The translations under genes were made by a program, and so were the position numbers. From NCBI GenBank assembly GCA_044228285.1, contig JBGAVD010000005.1, forward strand, positions 193,648-257,647: a DNA stretch of 64,000 nt, given 5' to 3'. Shown one piece after another: positions 16,382 through 50,285 of the stretch (position 1 is its first letter; every line of letters starts with the position of its first letter). Under the pieces are notes generated by a model. The model worked only from the letters and a program-made list of their open reading frames with translations, was not told the origin of the DNA and did not search any database. This DNA comes from Chlorobiota bacterium. Its GTDB lineage: Bacteria > Bacteroidota > Ignavibacteria > Kapaibacteriales > NICIL-2.

Positions 16382-17290
16382 ATGCAGGAAGCTATCGTAC
16401 AAGATGAACAGTTAAGAGCTGAGATCCAGCCGTTGTTGTCGCTCTTAGATGACACCGATAGCACCGTCACGACCGCTGTTCAAAACAAGCTCTTGTCGTA
16501 CGGACATCGTGTGGTGCCCTACCTCAGTGATGTACTAAACAAAGAAATCGAACTTACTCGTGACGATGAGAATCCTATCATCGTGAACGCTCGAGCGTGC
16601 ATACGCGCCTTGCAAACAGGTTCACTTTCGCGTTTGTTGAACCAAGTGATTGATGCGCATTTTGACCAGAAAGACATCAGTCTTGAGCAGGCAGCATACT
16701 TACTATCGGCCTTTGGATTTCCTGATATCGACGAGAATGAGTTTTACAAAACACTCGACGCCATTTCGCTACGTGTGCACAACATCTTCATTCAGATGAA
16801 GAATGCTTCAGACCTCAGTTTGCTGATGAGTCTGAATACGGTGTTCTTTGAGCAAGAAGATTTTCGGGGAGCAACTAAGAACTACTACGCTCCGGAGAAT
16901 TCATACATTTCGCAATTGCTCAAGTCGAAGAGGGGAATTCCTATCTCGATTTCCGTCGTATACATGCTGGTTGCTGAGCGAGTGGGGATTGAGCTTCATG
17001 GCATCGGCATGCCGCTCCATTTCCTAGTATACCATCCAGGACTAAACGTTTTCATTGACACGTTTAACCACGGAGCGTTTATATCACGCTCCGACTGCGA
17101 ACAGTTTATCCGGCAGTCAGGCTTTGCGTATTCAGACAAGATGTTGAACAAGTCAGCGAACATCAGTATCTGTGCTCGAATGATGCGCAACCTTATTTAT
17201 GCGCATTCAAAGTATGACCAGAAGTGGGAAGCCGAGACTCTGCAAGAGACTCTCGACGAGATTCTGAGATTGACCGACGAAAAAATCTAA
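16382..17290 (+). CDS. SirB1/UPF0162-family transglutaminase-like protein
   Basis: Core motif G-IPISISVVYMLVAERVGIELHGIGMPLHFLV resembles the conserved SirB1 segment (G-PISL-LY--VA-RLGL-L-GV-FPGHFL). Confidence 0.5.
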   Translation: MQEAIVQDEQLRAEIQPLLSLLDDTDSTVTTAVQNKLLSYGHRVVPYLSDVLNKEIELTRDDENPIIVNARACIRALQTGSLSRLLNQVIDAHFDQKDISLEQAAYLLSAFGFPDIDENEFYKTLDAISLRVHNIFIQMKNASDLSLLMSLNTVFFEQEDFRGATKNYYAPENSYISQLLKSKRGIPISISVVYMLVAERVGIELHGIGMPLHFLVYHPGLNVFIDTFNHGAFISRSDCEQFIRQSGFAYSDKMLNKSANISICARMMRNLIYAHSKYDQKWEAETLQETLDEILRLTDEKI

Positions 17291-17307: not shown

Positions 17308-18144
17308 TTATGCGTTGTCAAACGCGGTCAACTTCACACGCAAATCATTGCACACCTGTGTATGGATTTGGCAAATGCGGCTTTCAGTAAGTGAGAGCAA
17401 TACACCAATTTCCTTGAACGTCAAATTCTCGTAGTAGTAGAGCGTTACTACCAAGCGCTTACGCTCTGGAAGGTTCTTCAGATAGCGCATGAGGAAGGCC
17501 ATACGTTCTTCATCTGCCATGCGTGTCAATGGATTCTCGTAATCCATGTCAGGAATCTCCTGCAGGAGATCACGCTCATCACCATCGTCAGACAAACCAA
17601 GAGAAGACTTGGATTCGTTCATTGATAGGGACGCAACAGCAGCTGCCGCTGCACTAAGATAGGTTTGATACTCTTCAAGGCTGACATTTAGCCTCGTCCG
17701 GATTTCCTCTTCGCTAACCTCGCGACCAGTCTCTTTACGAAGTTGATCTGATACCGCAACGAGTTCATGAGCTTTCTTTCGTGCAGTGCGGGAGAGCCAA
17801 TCAAGTCTGCGCATTTCATCGAGTACGGTTCCTCGAACGCGGGGCATTGCAAAGGTCTCAAACTTGATTCCTCGTTCTGCTTCGAAACGATCAATGGCTT
17901 CATTGAGTCCCAGAATTCCCACATGCAAGAAATCCTCGTCACAGAGAATTGCATTGGTAGGGAGCGACATTGTATGCAAGGTATAGCGTACTAACCACAT
18001 GTAGTTAAGCATCAGACGCTTCTTAGCCTCTGAGCGCTTTGCAGCTGAGCTTCTTTTGGAATGAAACTCTTTCCATGCTGCTCGAACCGCGCTGTCGTCT
18101 ACACTAGGCGTAGGTTTCGTGAGTACTGTTTCCTGATCCACCAT
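17308..18144 (-). CDS. fliA: RNA polymerase sigma factor, FliA/WhiG (sigma-28) family
   Basis: Region 2 (FLHVGILGLNEAIDRFEAERGIKFETFAMPRVRGTVLDEMRRLDW), region 3 (LNVSLEEYQTY) and region 4 (LTFKEIGVLLSLTESRICQIHTQ) align closely with FliA. ATG with an AGGAG RBS. Confidence 0.8.
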   Translation of the reverse strand: MVDQETVLTKPTPSVDDSAVRAAWKEFHSKRSSAAKRSEAKKRLMLNYMWLVRYTLHTMSLPTNAILCDEDFLHVGILGLNEAIDRFEAERGIKFETFAMPRVRGTVLDEMRRLDWLSRTARKKAHELVAVSDQLRKETGREVSEEEIRTRLNVSLEEYQTYLSAAAAAVASLSMNESKSSLGLSDDGDERDLLQEIPDMDYENPLTRMADEERMAFLMRYLKNLPERKRLVVTLYYYENLTFKEIGVLLSLTESRICQIHTQVCNDLRVKLTAFDNA

Positions 18145-18181: not shown

Positions 18182-18574
18182 TCACTGTAGTTCGTTACCA
18201 GTGAGCATTTGATTGATTCGCTCTTCGCGCTCTTGATCCATTGCTCGCTGCTGAGAGTCCAATACTTGCTGTTCTGCTAAAGCCTCTTCATGTAGTCGCT
18301 GAATACGCTCTTCAGCTTCTTTCATTTTCACTCGATGGAGCACCCCAACGATCGTTACCATGATGATTCCCAGGCATACACTTACTCCAACAAAGACTAC
18401 AAGTGAGCGGTACATCGCCGTCGCAAAATCTGCCCGTGATCCAATCGTAAAAAGCAGATACGAAACGCATGCGGATAGGGTACTTACTTGGAAAAGTAGA
18501 CCTATTGGGTAGCGCGAACGAGCCGCTAAGTCCTTGTCCGAGCTTGATTTATCTGATTTCTTTGCTTTTGCCAT
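18182..18574 (-). CDS. Hypothetical small membrane protein (two predicted TM helices + C-terminal charged coiled-coil)
   Basis: 130 aa. Lys/Ser-rich N-terminus, TM1 IGLLFQVSTLSACVSYLLFTIG, TM2 LVVFVGVSVCLGIIMVTIVGVL, then an EAEERIQRLHEEALAEQQ... heptad-like segment. It occupies the position between flhF and fliA. Confidence 0.5.
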   Translation of the reverse strand: MAKAKKSDKSSSDKDLAARSRYPIGLLFQVSTLSACVSYLLFTIGSRADFATAMYRSLVVFVGVSVCLGIIMVTIVGVLHRVKMKEAEERIQRLHEEALAEQQVLDSQQRAMDQEREERINQMLTGNELQ

Positions 18575-18635: not shown

Positions 18636-19820
18636 TTATGCGCTTCTGGTAATTTGGGGCTGGAAAACGCTATCCACTATTCGTTCTGGAGTTGCAGCTT
18701 TTATCGACTGAGGGATTCCACGGCCGTCTGTGAGAAAAGATACCGGAACGTTGTAAGTGTGTAGCGCTTGCAGACATGTACCTTGCAATCTTGAACAGTC
18801 GACTTGCGTAAGGACGAGCGCGCACTCAGGGAGTGCTGAGGCCATTCTCATCCATTCATGTGCTGTTTTGTCGTTACAAACTGCGGATACAGTAAGTAGA
18901 ACCGTGTCAGCGTTTGTAGCACTTCTCAATTGCTCGATGCGTGCCGCGCTTTCCGAATTGGCACTATCTAACTGTACTTCTATAAAGACGAAGTCTTGAT
19001 CGTCAGTGTTCTGCATTAATTCCAATAGTTGTTGATTCGAACTATAGGACTCAAGGCGAACGCTTTGAACGTTATCTGGTAGTTGAGCATGTGCACTTGA
19101 AGGCTGTAGTATCAGTGCATTTGAATTCATGGTGAGCGCGAAACTAGCCGAGAGTTTCGCGCACAACGAGCTTTTGCCGCTACCGGGCGCGCCACTGACG
19201 ATGACAATCTTCGGTTGCGAACTTGGTCGTAATGGGTTTGATGTGCGGAGCGAGCTGCAGAGATGAGAGCGCAGTGCTTGACGGAGTATGTCAACTTGAG
19301 CTTCTATGCCTTGTTTATGCAAGTAGGAAAGCAGCTCGTTGCAATGTGTTTCACTGAAGCCAGCCTCCAAAAGCTCCGATTGAAGCACTAAGAATGCAGG
19401 GGGAGTAAAATTCCGTTGCTGAGAGCTTTGAACGGTGCTCAGATTCTCAATTGCTTTCCGTAGAGAAGCGATTTCCGATTGAATGGACTGGGTGTCAGCT
19501 GGAACTGACGCCGAGTAGCGGGTACGTAACTGAGTCTGAGGTGCTTGCGCGGGCGCATCTGGATTCTTTGTCACAGAAGTCGCAAAAAGTGGATTTCTGC
19601 GTTCGCCGGCAGCAAAGGCAATATCGGAGGGCACACGACGTTGTTGGCGGTGCAATTCCAACTCTTCGGGTTCTATGCCAGCCACTACTTCGGTAACTGG
19701 TAGACTCCCAGGTTCGAGAATCTCCCGCGAGGATAGGATAATTGCCTCTTCCCCCAATTCATTGCGCATTTGCTCCAAGCTATCGCGCATGTTTCGTCCA
19801 TGAAACTTCTTGATTCGCAT
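18636..19820 (-). CDS. flhF: FlhF-like SRP-type GTPase (flagellar biosynthesis regulator homolog) with degenerate G2/G3 motifs
   Basis: N-terminal B-domain MRIKKFHGRNMRDSLEQMRNELGEEAIILSSRE closely matches the FlhF N-terminus (B. subtilis MKIKKF...ELGNEAVIL). P-loop GAPGSGKSS retained. The G4 region VLTQVD and C-terminal NVPVSFLTDGRGIPQSI match FlhF. G2 (DTYR) and G3 (DTAG) are not conserved. Confidence 0.75.
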   Translation of the reverse strand: MRIKKFHGRNMRDSLEQMRNELGEEAIILSSREILEPGSLPVTEVVAGIEPEELELHRQQRRVPSDIAFAAGERRNPLFATSVTKNPDAPAQAPQTQLRTRYSASVPADTQSIQSEIASLRKAIENLSTVQSSQQRNFTPPAFLVLQSELLEAGFSETHCNELLSYLHKQGIEAQVDILRQALRSHLCSSLRTSNPLRPSSQPKIVIVSGAPGSGKSSLCAKLSASFALTMNSNALILQPSSAHAQLPDNVQSVRLESYSSNQQLLELMQNTDDQDFVFIEVQLDSANSESAARIEQLRSATNADTVLLTVSAVCNDKTAHEWMRMASALPECALVLTQVDCSRLQGTCLQALHTYNVPVSFLTDGRGIPQSIKAATPERIVDSVFQPQITRSA

Positions 19821-19992: not shown

Positions 19993-22900
19993 CTAGTGTG
20001 TTATCACGAGGGGAAGCGTATGTAAACTGCCGGCGCTTGTCATTCGCACACGGTAAACACCGGACGCAAACGCATGAACGTCGACGAGATACGTGTACTC
20101 TCCAGCTTTATGCTGACCATTCGTAAGGACAGCGACAACTTCACCCTTCTCATTTACAACATCCAACGTTGTGTGCGTTTCGAACCCAACAGCGTAGGAG
20201 ATTTTTGCAAATCCATCTTGAGCTGGTTGAGGTGATACAGAACGAAGAGCGAATGGGGTTTCGCTGACTTTGACAAAGCGTCCACCCATATAGCAACCTA
20301 CAATACTAGTATTCGCAGAACCAAGGTTAACGAGAACACAAGCTTCGCGACCGTTTGGCTTGAAGTCTGCCAATGGCGCAGTGAAGGACTGAGTCTTCAT
20401 ACTATCAATGAGAATCTGCATTTTGACTTTCACCAAATCGCCTGACGCACTCACTGGTGTACTTCCACTTGCAGTGACAATGAGATCAACCGAGTCCGGA
20501 GAACTCGTGTTTACTTGAACTGCAGAATCGATTTTCCAGCTGTTGTCGAACATTGCACCGAGTTGAGCCGTATTCTTCATATAGATGATATCAAATCGAT
20601 TGTAGCGGATACCAGCCGTGAACGACTTAACACCCGCATCCGCCCATTGCGTTGAGACTGCGCTCAGCGAAAGCTCGTTTACCGAGCCATCTGTTGCCAT
20701 ATCCATTGTCGCCTTCGCAAACGCAACGTTTGCAGCAATGGTCGAGACTTTAGTAGACGCCAAAAGAGAGTCTGTGAGCACGAGTCCATCATTAAATCTT
20801 GCATGGACATAAGCCTTATATGTACCTGTTCGCAAAGCGGTTGGATTAAAGACCACATCAAGTTTCACTGAAGATGCAGGTTGTATTGTGATTGGATTGC
20901 CTGGAGTTGGCGTACCGCTGATACTAAAGTTTGCAGCATCCGGTCCGTCTATCCACACTGAATCCAAGATGCGATCGGAGTTCGTCGCACCTGCGGCCGC
21001 ACTATTACCAACGGTGAACACTCCAGCTGGATGATCGCAAGCAGTATTCAAGCCGAAATCATGTCCTTTAACATACGGTGGATTCTGGATGATGCCGTAT
21101 GCCGTAACCATTACTATGGTCTCAAAGGTTCCGGTTGGATTTGCAGTGATAGGTTCTGCATTGTGAACGATGCGAACACGAACATGTTCTGGACCAGCCT
21201 TCGATGCAGTAAACCGCACTGGGATGAGGAATGGAGCCGAACCAATGTCGATAACGGTATCCTTTGGTAAGGTTCTCGTCCAGGCAAAGTCGCGAGGATA
21301 GATACGCTTTACATCATCGTCTGCCTCGTTGATGAAGTCGATACTATGGATAGTCAGCCAGCGAGAGGTACTAGTGTTTGAAATACTCACAAACTCACCT
21401 GCATTTGCGGATACGATAGAGTTGCCTGCAAGCTGAGGAGTCTTAATCTCTGCGTCTAGACATTGAATCTTCTCTAAGTAGCCGTAACCTGTAAGAAAGG
21501 CTTGCTTGGTAACATCGGTCGGGAAGGTGCCTTGAATCAAAGGAGTTTTTGGTCCTTCAACGGTTGGGAGGAACAATACGTCTGCCCGGACCGAATCAAG
21601 ACGGTTCTGGTACACAATAAATGGGATAGCGCGTTCCGTTCGTGTAACTGTATACTCAACCGGAATTGATGATACAACGTCGACGGCAGTACACGTAACC
21701 TGTTGAGTACCACTATTGCCAATGTAACAAGGAAGGGTCTTTGAAACACCCAATCGAACGCTGTCCCAATCATTTCCTATCACATAGGGTCCTGGAGCGC
21801 TTGAGCTTCCAAGCCATGTAGAAATAGGATCATCCTTCGGACTACTTGGTGCGTCACTTAAGAACGGTATGTCAAGTTTCCACTGGTCTTCTGTGGTAGG
21901 GGAGAAGCACACTTCTCGAAAAATCACGCTCTGACCTGGTGGAATAACGATCGTAAATGGAGGAGTTGTAGGTTGATTTTTATTGATGCTAAAAGGAGGA
22001 GTGATCTTCGTCTGATCTATACCTGTAACATGCAACGTATCCGTTCCAACGTTCTTAATAGAGAGATTTCCAGGAATACTACTATTGCAGACCGATTCCC
22101 CAATTCCCACGGTGCCAGCATCAAAATCACCAACTTGGATGTGTGGCATTACACCACGACCTCTAACGTAAAAGGCAAACGGAGCGCATGTTTCCTTTAC
22201 GAGAAGGGAGTCGAAATCTAAGTCTTGTGGAGTACTTACCTCTCTGGTAGGCAGGTAGCTAAGAGTGACGAGAATCGAATCATGCGCCTTGATGACAAGT
22301 CCTGTTGAGTCCGCAGCAGTGTCCGATTTCACACTAAACTCAGCTCCCTTAAGCATGTAAATTTTCTTTACCTTGATTGCTGAATCGTTGTCATTACGAA
22401 TCCAGACTTTCATCGACTTCGATGTACCTACTCGTACGTCACCGAAGTTTACTGGATCTGGATTCAAACGCACACGCGGCGCGAACCACGATACGCTATC
22501 GTAAGTAAAATTGAATGCGCGGTCAATGACATAGAACTTTGCGTATGCATCCTTGCTTTTGTCGATGACTTCGAGTCGAAATGTTGTTTTGAAGTTACTT
22601 GAAGAAACAGGTACTTTGCCGTCTTGTACTTCTTTGCCGTCCGAATGTGTAACGACGATGCGGTAGTTGAAACTACGAGCGTCAGCAGAATCGACGAAGT
22701 CTATCTCCCTAATACCAGTTTCAACATGATCTAAGGTATCATTAACCTTGAAGTTTCTTACTTCAGTACCTTGATAAGTGAAATCTCCACACTCCTCCGA
22801 TCTCGTCAATACAGGAGGCAGGGTATCAAACACATTGAGTTGCTTAAAGGCTGTGGCGGCTGGCCAGCCGTACGAGTCAAATTGGCCATAACCATAAATC

Positions 22901-24387
22901 TCGCCACCGAATGGGGTGTCGCCAAGAATGGTGTGTGGACCATTTGAGATACCAATTCGGGCGTAGTACAGATTTGTTCCTGGAATGCGATTACCTAAAA
23001 AGCTAGGAGTAGTGTTGTAGACGAACTTACCGTCGATCTTGATCGACTTCAGCAGCTTTGCAGAAGCATCTGAGGAGTCACCAATCGCAATCAAGCTAAA
23101 ATAGTGCGTCGTGTACGCAGGATTCGAAGGACATTGGAATATTGTTCCCTTCGTGTACTGTTCCTTTGCTACACAATAAATAGTAAAGGGATCAAAGTTG
23201 TTGTCGTTATCCCAATTTGCTGACGGACATTCGTGCATCAGTTGGAATGGCTTGTTTCCTTTGAAGATAGCCATTCCAACGATTCCTTTGGATTTAGCAG
23301 TCGCAGAACCAGGTCCATCTGATGGTTCCTCTGGAGACTTTGGCAAAGAGCGAACTTCTCCGGCTCTCATACCCAGCACCCCTGTCGGACCATTCAAACG
23401 TTTGCCTGTTTTAAAATCGTAACTCTCCCAGGTGATGTTCGTTCCATTCTCTTTTGCTACTGCTCGGTACAGGTCACCAAGACCGCCACGGACAAACTCA
23501 ACGGTGACGTAGGTTTTACCCCATTGTTCAACCGGTGGTACCATTTCGCAAACGTGATCTCGCCCTCCTCCAAGATTGAAGCAGGGGAACATGGTTCTCT
23601 GGTGAAAATCAATGAAACCGATAGGTTTCGTAGCCACAACTCTAGTACCGCTTAAATCGAATTGGCCTCTGGTCGTACCGTCTCCTTGGACGATGTACGC
23701 TTGACCACGCATCAGATTCACTTGCCAATGATCGCCATATTTATGTCCACCTTCGGTTCGTTTTCCTAAGCCCGTTGTTGCATACTCTCCATATGACGCT
23801 GAACGCGCATAAATATCAACCAGAGTGTTGTCTTCAGATGCAAAGAAGCAAAAGCCAGCCTTCCAATTACGGGCTTCATTGAAATCTGGGTAGGTGAGGG
23901 CATAGTATTCTTTGCCCCAAGATTGAACAGGGATTGCTAGGTATCCATCTGAAGAAACCTGTTTACCATTGTAGACATACACTGATACGTAATCATCAGC
24001 CTTGATGCTGATGCACAAATCTGAAACAGTCTCACTACCGATGACTTCCGGGATTGGAAAAACGCCACCAGCTCCATCAATGACAGTAACTTTTCCAGCT
24101 GTGACACGCAACCTTGACTTGAATCCTAAAGCAGGAACTTCATAATCAAAGGATGTGTTCTTAGAGGACGTGACATAGATTTCACGAGCGGTAGCTCCAC
24201 AGCTCGCGCAGTCATTCAGCGGTAGGCAGAACACAAAATCTCGACCTTGAGAGCCATTGTTCAAGATCCATTCTGAAGTAGGTTTCCCGCCCTGCACCGT
24301 TGGTGCTTTTTTCACTTGAGCACTAAGCGGATACAGCGCAAGAAGTGCAACGACCACCAAACGTATCCACAAGTATCTAAACGCCAT
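19993..24387 (-). CDS. Giant (1464 aa) secreted cell-surface/adhesin-like protein with T9SS C-terminal sorting domain
   Basis: Signal peptide MAFRYLWIRLVVVALLALYPLSAQ. The N-terminal ~500 aa are Cys- and Gly-rich with a beta-helix-like character. The middle has repeated Ig-like / all-beta segments. The C-terminal ~80 aa (LDVVNEKGEVVAVL...GEYTYLVDVHAFASGVYRVRMTS...LPLVI) match the T9SS CTD. Confidence 0.7.
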   Translation of the reverse strand: MAFRYLWIRLVVVALLALYPLSAQVKKAPTVQGGKPTSEWILNNGSQGRDFVFCLPLNDCASCGATAREIYVTSSKNTSFDYEVPALGFKSRLRVTAGKVTVIDGAGGVFPIPEVIGSETVSDLCISIKADDYVSVYVYNGKQVSSDGYLAIPVQSWGKEYYALTYPDFNEARNWKAGFCFFASEDNTLVDIYARSASYGEYATTGLGKRTEGGHKYGDHWQVNLMRGQAYIVQGDGTTRGQFDLSGTRVVATKPIGFIDFHQRTMFPCFNLGGGRDHVCEMVPPVEQWGKTYVTVEFVRGGLGDLYRAVAKENGTNITWESYDFKTGKRLNGPTGVLGMRAGEVRSLPKSPEEPSDGPGSATAKSKGIVGMAIFKGNKPFQLMHECPSANWDNDNNFDPFTIYCVAKEQYTKGTIFQCPSNPAYTTHYFSLIAIGDSSDASAKLLKSIKIDGKFVYNTTPSFLGNRIPGTNLYYARIGISNGPHTILGDTPFGGEIYGYGQFDSYGWPAATAFKQLNVFDTLPPVLTRSEECGDFTYQGTEVRNFKVNDTLDHVETGIREIDFVDSADARSFNYRIVVTHSDGKEVQDGKVPVSSSNFKTTFRLEVIDKSKDAYAKFYVIDRAFNFTYDSVSWFAPRVRLNPDPVNFGDVRVGTSKSMKVWIRNDNDSAIKVKKIYMLKGAEFSVKSDTAADSTGLVIKAHDSILVTLSYLPTREVSTPQDLDFDSLLVKETCAPFAFYVRGRGVMPHIQVGDFDAGTVGIGESVCNSSIPGNLSIKNVGTDTLHVTGIDQTKITPPFSINKNQPTTPPFTIVIPPGQSVIFREVCFSPTTEDQWKLDIPFLSDAPSSPKDDPISTWLGSSSAPGPYVIGNDWDSVRLGVSKTLPCYIGNSGTQQVTCTAVDVVSSIPVEYTVTRTERAIPFIVYQNRLDSVRADVLFLPTVEGPKTPLIQGTFPTDVTKQAFLTGYGYLEKIQCLDAEIKTPQLAGNSIVSANAGEFVSISNTSTSRWLTIHSIDFINEADDDVKRIYPRDFAWTRTLPKDTVIDIGSAPFLIPVRFTASKAGPEHVRVRIVHNAEPITANPTGTFETIVMVTAYGIIQNPPYVKGHDFGLNTACDHPAGVFTVGNSAAAGATNSDRILDSVWIDGPDAANFSISGTPTPGNPITIQPASSVKLDVVFNPTALRTGTYKAYVHARFNDGLVLTDSLLASTKVSTIAANVAFAKATMDMATDGSVNELSLSAVSTQWADAGVKSFTAGIRYNRFDIIYMKNTAQLGAMFDNSWKIDSAVQVNTSSPDSVDLIVTASGSTPVSASGDLVKVKMQILIDSMKTQSFTAPLADFKPNGREACVLVNLGSANTSIVGCYMGGRFVKVSETPFALRSVSPQPAQDGFAKISYAVGFETHTTLDVVNEKGEVVAVLTNGQHKAGEYTYLVDVHAFASGVYRVRMTSAGSLHTLPLVITH

Positions 24388-33612: not shown

Positions 33613-34389
33613 CTACTTCAATGAGAACTTGGTCATCGTACGTTGACTTCCAGCAATTCTCATAACGGGACTTGGACTCAGCGCTGTCATGACATTGGAT
33701 TGCTCGGTCTTCGACAACCAAAGTCCAACATTCTCAACAAAGTAAAAATGCTGCGTCAACGTATAACTGATCGTTCCTCCATTCACGATTACTTTAAAGT
33801 ACTGAATGTACTCACGAGCATCGTAATTCGTCCCTGCAATTGTGGCTGATTTTGAAGCTCCCGTTGCACCTGTCACTTCAAAACGAATAGTAGCAGAGAT
33901 GGTTCCCAAGCCGAACTTGGAGAGATTTAACATAACTCCAGTAAAAGTTGTGTCGAGCGACTTCCAGGAAGCCGCATCATCACTAGGTTTTACTTTCACC
34001 CAGAGGGCTGGTGCAACGAGCGCGGGAGCCAGAGTATCGAGTAAGCTTACTTTCGTGTTCACGAAGGTATAGATCGTACCTGTCGCACTATCTTTTGAAA
34101 AGAATGTCGTGTCGACCATTGCATCAGGACGAGCATACAAAATTCTAAATGCAGCACGATTGTTGTACCAGAGCGAGTCGCTTACGTAGGCTGAATCTTG
34201 AACTATCGGACCGCTTACATCGTTCGTAAGGGTATCGACTTCTTGGCGACTATAAAGCCAGTAGTTGCCGACTTTCAAGGGCAGAAAGTTCTTCGCTGGC
34301 GTGGGTGTCGGAGTCGGTGTTGTTGAGTCACTACAAGAACTGAGGGTGGCCGCTATGACAACGACAGCAGCTAAAATGCTATACTTCAT
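33613..34389 (-). CDS. Hypothetical lipoprotein
   Basis: MKYSILAAVVVIAATLSSCSD lipobox followed by a TPTPTPTP linker. The start is at the internal Met. The ORF extends to 34458. Confidence 0.4.
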   Translation of the reverse strand: MKYSILAAVVVIAATLSSCSDSTTPTPTPTPAKNFLPLKVGNYWLYSRQEVDTLTNDVSGPIVQDSAYVSDSLWYNNRAAFRILYARPDAMVDTTFFSKDSATGTIYTFVNTKVSLLDTLAPALVAPALWVKVKPSDDAASWKSLDTTFTGVMLNLSKFGLGTISATIRFEVTGATGASKSATIAGTNYDAREYIQYFKVIVNGGTISYTLTQHFYFVENVGLWLSKTEQSNVMTALSPSPVMRIAGSQRTMTKFSLK

Positions 34390-34483
34390 GTGAGATACTC
34401 CATAGATATGGTGGATAGAATGTTCTGTTTGCGTGATTATACGTCGGTCTATCACCACTTCGTTTCAACCCAGTTGAAATGCT

Positions 34484-34900
34484 CTATTCGCCGTTCTTAG
34501 CTGGAGCAGGAAGGGGACCGATGAGTGCAATGTACGCACCTGCTGGATCTTGAATCACGCAAAAATGAAATTCACCCATTTTCCTGGGACCGTCGACACA
34601 TTTACCACCGAGTTCGAGTGCCTGCTTAGCCCGTTCCTGCACATCCGGAACTTCAACATAGAGTAACCATTGCGGAGGTACATTTGCATTTGAGCCTTTT
34701 GCATAGCAAACACCGGCAATCGCCTCAGAAGCAGAATCAGACTCGGCAACATTCATGACGAAGTCTCCACCATGCTCTTCGCGAGCAGTAGCTTCCCATC
34801 CGCACACTTGGGAATAGAAAGAGCTCAGTTCAGCTGCATTTGGAACTGTAAGATCGTGCCACACGATGCGACCTTGTTTTTGTCTTGAATCTCTGTTCAT
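34484..34900 (-). CDS. VOC-family (glyoxalase/bleomycin-resistance fold) protein
   Basis: 138 aa, with IVWHDLTVPNAAELSSFYSQVCGWEA and a C-terminal HFCVIQDPAGAYIAL typical of paired beta-alpha-beta-beta-beta modules. Confidence 0.6.
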   Translation of the reverse strand: MNRDSRQKQGRIVWHDLTVPNAAELSSFYSQVCGWEATAREEHGGDFVMNVAESDSASEAIAGVCYAKGSNANVPPQWLLYVEVPDVQERAKQALELGGKCVDGPRKMGEFHFCVIQDPAGAYIALIGPLPAPAKNGE

Positions 34901-36072
34901 GCCATACTTCCTAGATATTTTATGACGAGAATTCCGATGTCATCTGATTGTACAACCTGAGTACTGTAACGGTGAACGCTTTCTACAACATGCATCATGA
35001 GATCATGCGCGCTGAGGTCTTGTTTGTTCAGAAGAATTGAGGCTACATTCTCAACACCGAACATACCACCATCCTTGTCATTCGCCTCCGTTACTCCATC
35101 AGTTACTACAACAATCGACTCTCCAATCTGTAGTGTACAGCTACGTGTATGGTAGGGCATGTGTGAAAGCATGCCGACGGCCATGTTTTGAGTTGGCTGG
35201 CATTCACAAACACTCCCATCGAGATTCACAATGAAAGGATTGACGTGAGCTGCATTACAGTAGTCCAGACGTCCGCTCGGAATGTGAAGTGTACCCAAGA
35301 AAACAGTTGCAAACATTGCCTGCTTGTTCTCGTCTGCAATGATGTTGTTGACGAGTGAGAGCGTATCGCTAGGCGATAGTCCTTGTAGGGTATATGAGCG
35401 AATCAGGATTCGAATCTGAGCCATGAGAAGAGCAGCTGATATCCCCTTACCGGAAACATCACCTACAACGAAAGCTAGACGCTCATCATCAACCATCATG
35501 TAGTCATAGAAGTCACCACCTACATGTCGGGCAGGTAGCATACCTCCATCGAGTTCGAACTCCTTTCGTTCAGGGAAAGCTGGTATACGGCGAGGCAGCA
35601 TCTCTTGCTGGATCTCATGTGCAATCTTCAATTCACTCTCGTACGCTTTCAGCGTATCTCGAGCTTTAAGAGCTTCGCGTACTATATCTACTCGAGCAGA
35701 GGCACGCATGATACTCTGTTGCAGGTCATCGAAGCTCACTGGCTTGACTAAATAATCACTAGCACCAGCATTCATTGCACGCCGAATAAAGTGCATGTCA
35801 TTGTAACCACTAATGACAATGGTTCGAATGTGCGGATAATATGCATTGATCTGCTCTAGGAGAGTGAGTCCGTCCATGTGAGGCATTGAGATGTCGCTCA
35901 TGACCAAAGCAATGTTTGGATGCGCCGAAATCAATTCCAGCGCTTCAATACCATCTCTGGCAAAGAGCAACGAGAGCTCGCCATGCTCGATCAATGGTTG
36001 TAAAGCAAACTCGACAAGCGTTATGAACTCTTCACTGTCGTCAACGAGAAGTAGCTGATAGCGTTCTTTCAC
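34897..36072 (-). CDS. Response regulator with receiver domain fused to PP2C/SpoIIE-type serine phosphatase (RsbU-like)
   Basis: REC: LLVDDSEEF, phospho-acceptor VMSDISMPHMDG, YLVKP. PP2C: GGDFYDYMM...FVVGDVSGKGISAALLMAQ...VVVTDGVTEA. Confidence 0.8.
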   Translation of the reverse strand: MKERYQLLLVDDSEEFITLVEFALQPLIEHGELSLLFARDGIEALELISAHPNIALVMSDISMPHMDGLTLLEQINAYYPHIRTIVISGYNDMHFIRRAMNAGASDYLVKPVSFDDLQQSIMRASARVDIVREALKARDTLKAYESELKIAHEIQQEMLPRRIPAFPERKEFELDGGMLPARHVGGDFYDYMMVDDERLAFVVGDVSGKGISAALLMAQIRILIRSYTLQGLSPSDTLSLVNNIIADENKQAMFATVFLGTLHIPSGRLDYCNAAHVNPFIVNLDGSVCECQPTQNMAVGMLSHMPYHTRSCTLQIGESIVVVTDGVTEANDKDGGMFGVENVASILLNKQDLSAHDLMMHVVESVHRYSTQVVQSDDIGILVIKYLGSMA

Positions 36073-36158: not shown

Positions 36159-36596
36159 TCAGAAACTAGAAGTACCTTCTCCTGAGCCGCCAAAATATGA
36201 ACGGAGTTGGAACAGCGCCCACAACATCAGAAAGTCGCCAAACAACCCACCTATGCTGAACTCTATAATGTTTGCAATCACTGCTACAAGAACTGAATAG
36301 AGTGCGAAATCCCAACCCTGTTTCGAGCCTGAAAGCATTCGCAAGCCTCCTAGCAATCCGAGCACGGCTTGGATTCCATACAGTATCAAAATGAGCATCG
36401 TCGCCGCTCCTGCTATAGGGCTTGCGACTGAAAAAAAGGTGACTAAGCCTAGAGAAGTCACGATAAACAAACCGGATATCACGGAAATAATGATCAAAAT
36501 CCATGGAAAGTAGCGGACTAGAAAATCGATGATACTCTGCGGCCATTTCGGCAGTTTAGCGAAAAAATCTCCCAACGGTTTCTCAATAGCTTCCAT
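36159..36596 (-). CDS. Hypothetical small integral membrane protein (3-4 TM)
   Basis: 145 aa, hydrophobic helices. I recognise no family. Confidence 0.4.
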   Translation of the reverse strand: MEAIEKPLGDFFAKLPKWPQSIIDFLVRYFPWILIIISVISGLFIVTSLGLVTFFSVASPIAGAATMLILILYGIQAVLGLLGGLRMLSGSKQGWDFALYSVLVAVIANIIEFSIGGLFGDFLMLWALFQLRSYFGGSGEGTSSF

Positions 36597-36641
36597 GAGA
36601 ATTCCCCTTAAAGTGATAGAAATTGAAACGAGTGAGTCGCC

Positions 36642-37280
36642 CTACTTCGCTGATAAGTCATTCAACCGCATTGAATTTGCTACGCTTTTCGTAAAGTCAT
36701 TACTTGTCTGATTGTTCGCCTTGACATTGATGACGAATCGTCCACCAATCGCATAGGTTAGCTCTGAGCGTTTGTCCTTCTTATACAAGTGCTCAATACC
36801 TGCTGAGTAGGGAAGTTTCGGATCAAAGGTCTTCGTGCTTTCATTATCATTGTCTGTCGAAAATCCCATAGCCCACATGGCGGTAACAAGTTCATATAGC
36901 CCGGGGTTTTGATTGTAGTCAAGAATCTCCACTTCCACTTCACCACCATTTGCGGAAGTATAGCGGCGCTTTGCTGTTGAGTATGACGCACCAGCCATAT
37001 TAATCGACTCACCACTTGGTTCCTCACTTGTATAACCATTGATGCTGGCTGGAAGAAATGCTTGGAGCTCTTTGTAATGTATGGCAAGCGTGTCGCCCTT
37101 GGCTTTACGCTCCTCGCGTCTCTTACTAACATCAGCATTTTTCTTTTGCATTTCATCAGCATTCTCGCTGAGATTCTTTACAGCATCCATAGCGTCTTTC
37201 ATCTCTTGAGCTTTTTCTCCGCAACTGCTGAGAGCAATAAAGAAGCAAAGAGCGACGCCGAGTATCGAAGTACGTTTCAT
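36642..37280 (-). CDS. Hypothetical lipoprotein
   Basis: MKRTSILGVALCFFIALSSCGEK lipobox. Lys/Glu-rich N-terminal half. The start is at the internal Met. The ORF extends to 37307. Confidence 0.4.
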   Translation of the reverse strand: MKRTSILGVALCFFIALSSCGEKAQEMKDAMDAVKNLSENADEMQKKNADVSKRREERKAKGDTLAIHYKELQAFLPASINGYTSEEPSGESINMAGASYSTAKRRYTSANGGEVEVEILDYNQNPGLYELVTAMWAMGFSTDNDNESTKTFDPKLPYSAGIEHLYKKDKRSELTYAIGGRFVINVKANNQTSNDFTKSVANSMRLNDLSAK

Positions 37281-37559
37281 TTCGACTCCTACAGTGTTAG
37301 TAAACAAAAGACCAAATCGTCTGCTTAACTTAGCTAATGTTTGCCTTCGTTGTACTCGGGAGTTTTCAACCCATTTGTTGTCAACGGGAGTAGCGTAGCT
37401 ATTGTCCTATCAAAGCTCGGCGCAAAGACGGTCTGGCTCTATACCCTTCAGCAGTCCTTCGCTGCTATCAGAGTCCGCGACCATGCGAATGAGTCAATTG
37501 TTTTTCCAAGAGTCTGTAAATTGAAGCTCTTTCAGCAATGATCAACTCCAACTACCACT

Positions 37560-48617: not shown

Positions 48618-48689
48618 GAGGCTGCTATACGGTGTTCTGCATTCATTCTCGGGCTATAATATCCAATAGAACTGCCGATAATGTAGAGC

Positions 48690-50285
48690 ATGCCCCATCA
48701 GCAGCTGCAGAATACCCTTCACAGACTCTATACCGAGCAGACTCTACGCTCTGTGGGTCGCTTGCGCTTTCCTGAAGTTGTTGAGCGTGAGTTTCAAGAG
48801 TCATTTTATAACCCGCGCGCTCACGAGTTTATCACGCGCTGGGGTCTCCTTCCAGGATTTGTGATTCTCCTTGCCTTCTGCATCGGCGACATTATTGGTT
48901 TTAGTGAAAAGCTCATACTCATTGAGTCGATACGAGTGATTAGCATGGTGCCCCTCTTGCTGTTGTATAAGTACAAACTCAATGTATGGGTGTATAGGCA
49001 TATTCGAAACTTGTACTCGGCTTATCTCCTGTTGTTAGCCTTCAGTGTAGGGACGATTATCGCTATAAGCCCGCACACTGATTTCGCGCATAGGGGCTAC
49101 ATGTTGTCACTTCCAATGCTGATCATAACCACTTTTTTAGCAAAACCGAAGATCCAGATTGGAGTAGCAACGAGCGTGTTGTTCTGCCTCTGCTTCGATG
49201 TTGCCAATCTGTTGTTGGATTTTAAGCCTTTGGGCTTTGGCGAAGTGGTTTCGATGGTGCATTTCAACCTTGTCATGCTGTCGTCCATAGTCATTGGTGC
49301 GTTTACAGCCTATGTTCTCGAGGTTGCAGAACGAAGAGAGTTTCTGCAGCGTAAAATCATAGATCAAGACAAAGAGTTAATCCTATTGCAACAGCTTGAG
49401 CTGAGTGAAGCAGTGAACGAGCTCAGAAGTGTCAACGATCAGCTAGCTTTAAACAACGAGCGCCTTGATCAGTTGAATCGAGAGAAAGATGTCTTCTTAG
49501 GAATTGCTGCACATGACCTGAAGAACCCACTTACCGGAATCTCTGTAAACATTGCTGGCATCAAACGTCACATTGCGAAAATGTCGCAAGGTGATCTGCT
49601 TGCAGCCATGGACCGTATCGATCTCGCCGCAACGAGAATGCGACGTTTGATCGTACAACTCCTAGACATCAACAAGCTAGAGCACGGCTCTATGGAGATA
49701 AACCCACAAAGAGTGTTGATGTCAGAATTGTTGCTGTCAGTGCAACATGACTATCAACTTCAAGCTAGCGAGAAGAATCTGAAACTAATGGTGGAATGTG
49801 AAGCAGGTCTCTGGAGTTGGGCAGACTCGTCCATGCTAATGCAGGTACTGGACAATCTGGTTTCAAACGCGATCAAGTTTTCAGCACAGCATCGCGTGAT
49901 ACGACTTCGTGCACACATGATGAATGTGGACAATACACAGTGGGTGAAGGTGTGCATTCAGGACGAAGGTCCCGGCATCTCTGCCGACGACATAGACAAA
50001 CTATTCAAGAGATTTACAAAACTATCAGCAAAGCCCACTGCTGGTGAGCACTCGAGCGGACTGGGTTTGTCGATTGCAAAGATGCTCATAGATCGGATGG
50101 AGGGTAGCATCCACTGCGAATCGGAGGTGGGGAAGGGAACGAGTTTTGTTCTTCTACTCCCACCTGCTGAAAAATGCGCCACTTCTCCAATAGTAAGAGA
50201 TGTGGACAGAGAACTACAAAGAGCTGACGTGTGTAGTGCTCCTGACCAGCCTAAACATGCACAATTCGGATCATCAAGACTATAA
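48690..50285 (+). CDS. Sensor histidine kinase with N-terminal polytopic membrane sensor domain
   Basis: About 6 TM helices, then a coiled coil, an H-box AAHDLKNPLTGI, and an HATPase N/G boxes (VSNAIKFS, DEGPGI, GLGLSIAK). There is no response regulator adjacent. Confidence 0.8.
   Translation: MPHQQLQNTLHRLYTEQTLRSVGRLRFPEVVEREFQESFYNPRAHEFITRWGLLPGFVILLAFCIGDIIGFSEKLILIESIRVISMVPLLLLYKYKLNVWVYRHIRNLYSAYLLLLAFSVGTIIAISPHTDFAHRGYMLSLPMLIITTFLAKPKIQIGVATSVLFCLCFDVANLLLDFKPLGFGEVVSMVHFNLVMLSSIVIGAFTAYVLEVAERREFLQRKIIDQDKELILLQQLELSEAVNELRSVNDQLALNNERLDQLNREKDVFLGIAAHDLKNPLTGISVNIAGIKRHIAKMSQGDLLAAMDRIDLAATRMRRLIVQLLDINKLEHGSMEINPQRVLMSELLLSVQHDYQLQASEKNLKLMVECEAGLWSWADSSMLMQVLDNLVSNAIKFSAQHRVIRLRAHMMNVDNTQWVKVCIQDEGPGISADDIDKLFKRFTKLSAKPTAGEHSSGLGLSIAKMLIDRMEGSIHCESEVGKGTSFVLLLPPAEKCATSPIVRDVDRELQRADVCSAPDQPKHAQFGSSRL

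Follow-up and report, generated by a model that had tools for sequence, protein, structure and literature searches.

How an FlhF protein comes to be retained when the motifs of its GTPase switch are gone is the question raised by a gene in a 64,000-nucleotide stretch of a Chlorobiota bacterium genome (assembly GCA_044228285.1, contig JBGAVD010000005.1, positions 193,648 to 257,647 of the forward strand), hereafter referred to as the window. An open reading frame with an ATG start at 18636..19820 on the minus strand, the strand on which the flhF gene, its domains and motifs and its operon partners all lie, encodes a 394-residue protein which by its profile matches, fold and position is an FlhF ortholog of the B-NG architecture with a degenerate G domain. 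With moderate confidence, we take this gene to be the genuine flhF of a Kapabacteria sub-lineage with flagella, the product of which has turned into a pseudo-GTPase and acts as a constitutive adaptor.

The state of the individual GTPase motifs is evident from the alignment with the B. subtilis FlhF 2px0, which is the best match among the PDB sequences in a phmmer search (E 1.5e-7). The P-loop, or G1, is intact as GAPGSGKSS (residues 210-218, 19167..19193) opposite GsTGaGKTT. The initial annotation had likewise described an intact P-loop, although the string GPTGVGKTTT which it quoted for B. subtilis is a general FlhF consensus and 2px0 instead reads GSTGAGKTT; the conclusion is unaffected. The former G2 in switch I, ILQPSSAHAQLPD (residues 237-249, 19074..19112), is without DTxR/K and has a six-residue deletion, and in the alignment of ITTDTYRIAAVEQL from 2px0 with ILQPS----SAHAQL the DTYR stands opposite QPS/SAH with a gap. 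At the former G3, VFIEVQLDS (residues 278-286, 18963..18989), DTxGR is absent, with VFVDTAGRN of 2px0 aligned to VFIEVQLDSAN and DTAGR falling opposite EVQLD. The G4 reads TQVD opposite TKID (residues 338-341, 18798..18809), where the Lys is changed to Gln and the Asp, D341, is kept and is invariant in every alignment. Finally, the G5 region is maintained, GRGIPQSI near the C-terminus corresponds to GQNVPEDI in 2px0, and the C-terminal region with P359, G366 and P370 is conserved across the alignments. In SRP (signal recognition particle) GTPases, the G2 Thr and the G3 Asp coordinate Mg2+, the γ-phosphate is sensed by the G3 Gly, and it is with the arginines of G2 and G3 that the composite active site in the head-to-tail dimer becomes complete.

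The motif columns are the same whether the protein is aligned by MAFFT to 80 species-level FlhFs or to 178 database proteins, and a regular-expression search found no D[TS]x[RK], D[TS]xG or [NT]KxD in the whole protein, the sole DxxG being the DGRG at residue 365 in the G5 region. That G2 and G3 are present but shifted in register, which the initial annotation had named as the outcome that would undo its by-eye alignment, is thus next to impossible, the more so as the same register comes out of HMMER, of MAFFT and of the structure model. The by-eye register therefore holds, and with it the losses of the G2 Thr and Arg and of the G3 DxxG and the Lys-to-Gln change in G4; the N-terminal and C-terminal regions are likewise conserved, as had been read from it.

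The family assignment of the protein is clear from some measures and fails by others. The Pfam SRP54 profile (PF00448) matches residues 203-386 with 48 bits against a cutoff of 22.7 and is covered from position 1 to 195 of 196. The NCBIfam FlhF equivalog TIGR03499 is aligned from residue 1 to residue 237, just past the P-loop, and its score of 99.1 bits lies under the equivalog cutoff of 174.15. Fold, architecture and position thus place the protein in the FlhF family, while it falls outside by its GTPase motifs and its equivalog score. There is also a warning for annotation in this, as degenerate FlhFs that score under the cutoff are labelled hypothetical.

The AlphaFold2 (AF2) model, built from a 96-sequence alignment, has a mean pLDDT (predicted local distance difference test) of 88. 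The B domain opens with the FliG-interaction domain (FID; residues 1-52, 19665..19820), which is characterized by the pattern MRIKKF...ELG.DA.ILS. Delimited by the model and by conservation, the FID is predicted as three strands and one helix (strands 2-8, 27-34 and 42-49, helix 11-22) with a pLDDT of about 97, and over residues 1-49 the model agrees with the published description of the FID crystal structure of the S. putrefaciens FlhF (PMC11236974). Within the domain, A26, I28, L29, E44 and A47 are invariant. The B-domain linker which follows (residues 53-110, 19491..19664) is disordered according to the model and the alignment, with a pLDDT below 50 at residues 71-103 and low conservation. 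The fast-evolving N domain (residues 111-198, 19227..19490), recognized by the model, by its identity values and by its rate, is a helical bundle, the helices of which lie at residues 108-190, and the Rossmann-like G domain of the SRP-GTPase fold with lost switch motifs (residues 199-394, 18639..19226) is identified by Pfam and Foldseek.

In a Foldseek search of the PDB, the top match is the S. putrefaciens FlhF 8r9r (E 5e-15), and the TM-score, normalized by target, is 0.77 to the B. subtilis FlhF 2px0 and 0.73-0.77 across the FlhF structures; NG domains of SRP54/Ffh and FtsY/SR-alpha are interleaved with the FlhF structures at similar scores. Between the strands at residues 235-240 and 254-259, the model has only coil (241-253). 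The related protein P0033, which has intact motifs and was modelled with the same sequence set, has a 13-residue helix at residues 262-274 after G2. In the model of the window protein, the helix after switch I is thus missing too, which fits the six-residue deletion. A candidate pseudo-GTPase, as the initial annotation had termed it, is therefore borne out by the SRP54 match, the confident model and the match to 8r9r, with the loss of hydrolysis inferred from the motifs.

The degeneracy is not limited to a single genome. Close relatives of the protein in the protein database are only three (45%, 37% and 29% identity), one of them annotated as Candidatus Kapabacteria. When one genome was scanned for each GTDB species, where the FlhF loci are the 80 best of 384 matches, G2 and G3 are both lost only in the window and in L004, L005, L006 and L007, which come from Chlorobiota and Kapaibacterium metagenome-assembled genomes (MAGs). 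Of the remaining FlhFs of this set, 73 of 75 have kept both motifs, the exceptions being L060 without G2 and L067 without G3. When 1.84 billion cluster representatives were searched exhaustively by profile, three further degenerate FlhFs came to light, P0034 (G2, G3 and G4 lost), P0036 (G2 and G3 lost) and P0037 (G2 lost), which brings the total to eight species or clusters. Seven of these eight form a clade in the neighbour-joining tree with a bootstrap of 88/100, the sister group of P0033, P0035 and L008 with intact DTYK/DTVGR is found at 100/100, and the clade without flhG as a whole is likewise supported at 100/100. Since the loss of G2 and G3 is common to a bootstrapped clade, it is no chance feature. 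The GTPase fold is there, the catalytic G motifs are gone and their absence is lineage-wide, which together marks the protein as a candidate pseudo-GTPase; the lineage-wide degeneracy also answers the comparison of orthologs that had been proposed as a check. The P-loop is kept in seven of the eight members and reads GSGATS in L007/P0004, where its Lys is lost. The retained P-loop and G4 Asp suggest that nucleotide binding may persist in most degenerate members, although not in L007.

The position of the gene is likewise informative. In the window, a gene for a type IX secretion system (T9SS) cargo protein is followed by flhF, a gene for a 130-residue transmembrane protein, fliA and a convergent transglutaminase-like gene, and the same order is repeated in L001/L005, L002/L006, L004 and L087. 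The transmembrane protein (18182..18574), a conserved operon member, has two predicted transmembrane helices and a charged coiled-coil tail, and fliA for sigma-28 (17308..18144; TIGR02479 FliA_WhiG, 210.6 bits against a cutoff of 189.6) closes the cluster. The operon of 15 other Kapabacteria-type loci reads flhF, flhG, the transmembrane protein gene and fliA. With fliA two genes downstream, the window gene occupies the position of the canonical flhF in the operons of its relatives, which supports its identity, while neither flhG nor flhA is found at the locus.

At the level of the locus, flhG is absent between flhF and the transmembrane protein gene in the window, L004-L007, P0034, P0036, P0037 and the sisters L008 and P0033. 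For the window genome the absence covers the operon and the 64 kb of the window, and as the gap between flhF and the transmembrane protein gene is 61 bp, no remnant of flhG is left there. Among the 120 best FlhG relatives found with the L072 protein as the query, none is a relocated FlhG on the contigs of the window or of L004-L008, a result which speaks for these contigs and is uninformative on whole genomes. The degeneracy had initially been said to fit the absence of FlhG, and this is the case, since flhG is missing at its operon position in all degenerate members and in the sister group with intact motifs. As flhG is gone also in the sisters and the flhG-less group is supported at 100/100, the loss of flhG from the operon preceded the decay of the motifs. 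Scattered flagellar and chemotaxis genes have been described in Kapabacteria MAGs (PMC6338057, PMC7509429), and the locus of the degenerate member P0036 includes a FliO gene (PF04347, 50.8 bits) 2 kb past fliA; for these reasons, the lineage of the window is probably flagellated.

The rates of evolution differ sharply between the parts of the protein. Among the four closest members (the window compared with L004, L005 and L006), nonsynonymous divergence (dN) was estimated by the Nei-Gojobori method. FliA is 92-95% identical with a dN of about 0.05, and the FID (residues 1-52) follows with 71-94% and 0.055-0.18. The corresponding values are 56-75% and 0.19-0.40 for the transmembrane protein, 30-52% and 0.45-0.9 for the G domain, and 22-36% and about 1.0-1.2 for the N domain, so that the N and G domains evolve roughly 10-20 times faster than FliA. 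The claim that the protein is under selection therefore stands in full for the strongly constrained FID and needs to be qualified for the rest. Nevertheless, at least eight lineages that have diverged deeply still carry an unbroken open reading frame, and the clade alignment has invariant positions at the glycines of the P-loop, in the strand that precedes G3 (DF.F) and at D341, G347, G366 and P370, which argues that the fold is still maintained. A control is provided by L008 and P0033, which are without flhG but have intact motifs: at 82% FliA identity their G domains are 55% identical, whereas for degenerate FlhFs paired at an equal FliA identity the value is about 28%. According to this one control pair, the acceleration of the NG domain goes with the loss of the motifs and not with the loss of flhG alone.

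Such a protein most likely functions as a tether that joins FliG to a partner in the membrane and does not cycle. Without the contacts to Mg2+ and the γ-phosphate and without the arginines of the composite site, it would be expected from the motifs to undergo neither GTP-dependent homodimerization nor a hydrolysis cycle, although a nucleotide may stay bound as a structural ligand via G1, G4 and G5. The FID would bind FliG and seed the assembly of the MS/C-ring, and the NG domain would serve only for docking, irrespective of nucleotide, on a membrane or landmark partner, for which the co-transcribed coiled-coil protein with two transmembrane helices is a candidate. In S. putrefaciens, the first 44-60 residues of FlhF are enough for FliG binding, and the attachment of the NG domain to HubP does not depend on nucleotide (PMC11236974); by analogy with these two properties a constitutive tether would be the simplest model. 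The proposed order of events begins with FlhG, from which the DQAxxLR activator helix disappeared across the Kapabacteria-type lineages; flhG was subsequently deleted, and the switch motifs of FlhF finally decayed while its N and G domains accelerated.

Several observations weigh against a pseudo-GTPase that acts as a constitutive adaptor. The P-loop in seven of eight members and the G4 Asp in all of them make it seem, from the sequences, that nucleotide binding is still selected for, and with these elements kept the degenerate FlhF may have some non-canonical activity. In P. aeruginosa, GTP hydrolysis has been proposed to release FliG from FlhF for C-ring formation (PMC12713375), and a hydrolysis-dead FlhF would consequently need another route of release. 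FlhF mutants in GTP binding are defective in many species (PMC12826062). Synonymous sites are saturated among the compared members (pS, the proportion of synonymous differences, is 0.75-0.9), so the rates are given as dN only and dN/dS is not computable, and a dN of about 1 in the N domain is compatible with very weak constraint. Profile scans found no other flagellar gene in the 64-kb window, and flhG or a second, canonical flhF could be present elsewhere in the genome. The transmembrane protein, too, is put forward as a candidate partner purely from gene order.

One alternative is a rewired enzyme, that is, an NTPase which is still active because its catalytic residues have migrated or its specificity has changed, for example towards ATP or a kinase-like P-loop chemistry. 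The change of the P-loop from GPTGxGKTT to GAPGSGKSS gives it a form typical of P-loop kinases, the segment of residues 195-249 matches the Pfam Zeta_toxin profile with 29.5 bits (cutoff 22.3), the G4 has lost its Lys and kept its Asp, and in most members the P-loop is retained. The Zeta_toxin match, however, spans the P-loop segment only, whereas SRP54 spans its full profile, and for this reason an assignment to the zeta-toxin or kinase family was rejected. Moreover, no alternative conserved acidic or Arg motif emerges from the clade alignment, where glycines and hydrophobic residues of the core account for most of the invariant positions, one member (L007) has lost even the P-loop Lys, and a G-domain dN of 0.45-0.9 against 0.05 in FliA fits relaxation better than a new active site. 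An active enzyme is consequently unlikely.

Another alternative is a decaying relic, in which flagella are being lost, the NG domain drifts neutrally towards a pseudogene and the FID alone or nothing at all is functional. The lack of further flagellar genes in the window is in line with this, as are the N-domain dN of about 1, the N- and G-domain identities of 22-52% next to 92-95% in FliA, and the disappearance from the core clade of both flhG and the HDOD and kinase genes that come after fliA in most of the canonical Kapabacteria-type loci checked. A relic is nevertheless quite unlikely, as full-length open reading frames persist in at least eight species or clusters with saturated synonymous sites, the NG fold is predicted confidently, there is invariance in its core, in the glycines of the P-loop and at D341, G366 and P370, the constraint on FliA and the FID is very strong, and FliO lies beside the locus of a degenerate member. 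The gene might also be a specialized paralog with a side function linked to FliA, the canonical flhF-flhG pair being located elsewhere, for example near flhA, which is not adjacent here, and flagellar genes are indeed scattered in Kapabacteria (PMC6338057). Yet the gene sits at the exact position of the sole flhF of canonical relatives, down to the T9SS cargo gene upstream, which encodes 1460 residues and is shared with L072 and L080, each degenerate genome has one locus among the 80 best of 384 matches, and, as a weak further point, none of the 120 best FlhG relatives is placed on the contigs of these loci; a paralog is distinctly improbable.

The interpretation of the window protein as a pseudo-GTPase FlhF gains a wider setting from the FlhG proteins encoded next to other FlhFs. 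Among the 80 FlhF loci (L004-L083), the N-terminal activator motif DQAxxLR of FlhG is found in 38, and in 36 of these 38 the FlhF has both DTxR and DTxGR. In about 14 Ignavibacteria loci, the motif is replaced by a GQAERLxEL variant, while the activator helix is absent in all Kapabacteria-type FlhGs, where Walker A begins at residue 9-29. The absence of the activator motif correlates with an Arg-to-Lys change in the FlhF G2 (DTYK) and with a loss of the Arg after G3: the FlhFs that accompany Kapabacteria-type FlhGs carry DTxK where others carry DTxR, and this Arg is often missing from them. Eroded FlhFs also occur outside Kapabacteria. The independent degenerate FlhF P0027 (L090, 2982-3959), which has a relative in P0025, reads GAGRTS, is without DTxR and has DTPAWG and TQVD; its locus is a classical flhA-flhF-flhG-fliA-cheY cluster, the FlhG of which starts with MRILSVSSGKGGVGKT and is without the activator helix. 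The FlhF of a Legionellales MAG (L067, 1004-2125) has lost G3 and that of a Nitrospirota genome (L060, 6001-7269) has lost G2, in both cases next to an FlhG without the activator motif. It is thus conceivable, as a tentative proposal which may equally well fail, that the FlhF GTPase cycle becomes dispensable once activation by FlhG is gone and that pseudo-GTPases have arisen repeatedly, in the Kapabacteria clade, independently in P0025/P0027, in L067 and partly in L060, each time with an FlhG that is either absent or devoid of the DQAxxLR helix, and with the resulting nucleotide-independent FID-FliG tethers still building flagella. If true, this would amount to a natural separation-of-function experiment for the FlhF/FlhG switch.

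As regards the neighbouring genes, the transmembrane protein has a basic N-terminus, and its homologs range from 70 to 502 residues and are encoded between flhG (or flhF) and fliA in Kapabacteria and Ignavibacteria, where 29 open reading frames occur at the same position. The protein has no Pfam or NCBIfam family match. Homology to FipA (DUF2802) was considered and rejected at the sequence level, as there was no Pfam match even at E 0.1, and a functional analogy to FipA is speculation. Directly upstream of flhF and co-oriented with it, the T9SS cargo gene (19993-24387, minus strand) encodes 1464 residues with IgGFc_binding, ASH/HYDIN-like Ig and Por_Secre_tail domains, and a cargo gene is found upstream of flhF also in L072 and L080, which are canonical and contain flhG. 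Canonical Kapabacteria-type loci (for instance, L024 9630-11894, L072 3948-4880, L084 2695-3567 and L089 3963-4832) have an HDOD-domain gene behind fliA, as do P0033 and P0037, and a histidine-kinase-like gene often comes after it; in the core clade of the window the convergent transglutaminase-like gene (window 16382-17290) stands in its place.

A sigma-28 promoter scan of the window (TAAA-N14-16-GCCGATAA, up to two mismatches) gave no evidence of a FliA regulon, with five matches at three places compared with about 6.4 in shuffled sequence. The best sigma-28-like site (48655-48681, plus strand) is TATA-N15-GCCGATAA with a perfect -10 element, and the ATG of a histidine-kinase gene (48690-50285) follows 9 bp downstream. 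Elsewhere in the window, a gene at 34897-36072 on the minus strand encodes a response-regulator receiver fused to a SpoIIE/PP2C phosphatase of the partner-switching type and adjoins several open reading frames without a family assignment (33613-34458, 36159-37307).

FlhF and FlhG have been presented as a conserved GTPase/ATPase switch for flagellar place and number, and a 2025 review describes the two genes as consistently encoded together and does not mention degenerate FlhFs (PMC12826062). Targeted literature searches likewise found no description of a degenerate, catalytically inactive or pseudo-GTPase member of the FlhF/SRP family. The lineage described here breaks this pattern, as its flhG is gone from the operon and the FlhF switch has decayed while the FliG-binding head remains nearly invariant. 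It thereby provides a natural experiment for telling the FlhF functions that depend on the GTP cycle from those for which tethering suffices, together with an ordered series from a regulatory GTPase to a pseudoenzyme in which the activator helix, then flhG and then G2 and G3 are lost.

Compared with the structurally known FlhFs (2PX0/3SYN, and the S. putrefaciens 8R9R with its FID), the window protein shares the B-NG architecture, the FID with its three strands and single helix and the NG fold of the SRP type, and of the motifs it retains the P-loop, the Asp of G4 and the G5 region. In contrast to the canonical B. subtilis and S. putrefaciens proteins, it is without the G2 DTxR, the G3 DTxGR, the G4 Lys and the helix after G2, and its locus shares flhF upstream of fliA with theirs but has no flhG downstream and no flhA upstream. 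Partial precedents exist for the steps that separate them. The Pseudomonas FleN is an FlhG without the DQAxxLR motif (PMC12713375) and in this resembles the Kapabacteria-type FlhGs, which illustrates that the activation of the FlhF GTPase by FlhG can be lost naturally; Pseudomonas, however, keeps both genes and an intact FlhF GTPase, whereas in the window flhG is gone and FlhF is degenerate. The B. cereus FlhF functions without any FlhG homolog and needs GTP-dependent homodimerization involving T253 and D391 (PMC7218170). An FlhF retained without FlhG is also the state of the sisters L008 and P0033 with intact motifs. The B. cereus protein keeps its GTPase motifs, while the window protein has lost the equivalents of T253 and D391. 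Outside the SRP family, pseudo-GTPases such as the N-terminal domain of AAGAB have a GTPase fold without the catalytic motifs (PMC12490416, PMC10211241), and the window FlhF would resemble them in that the fold has been kept as a protein-interaction module after the G motifs were lost.

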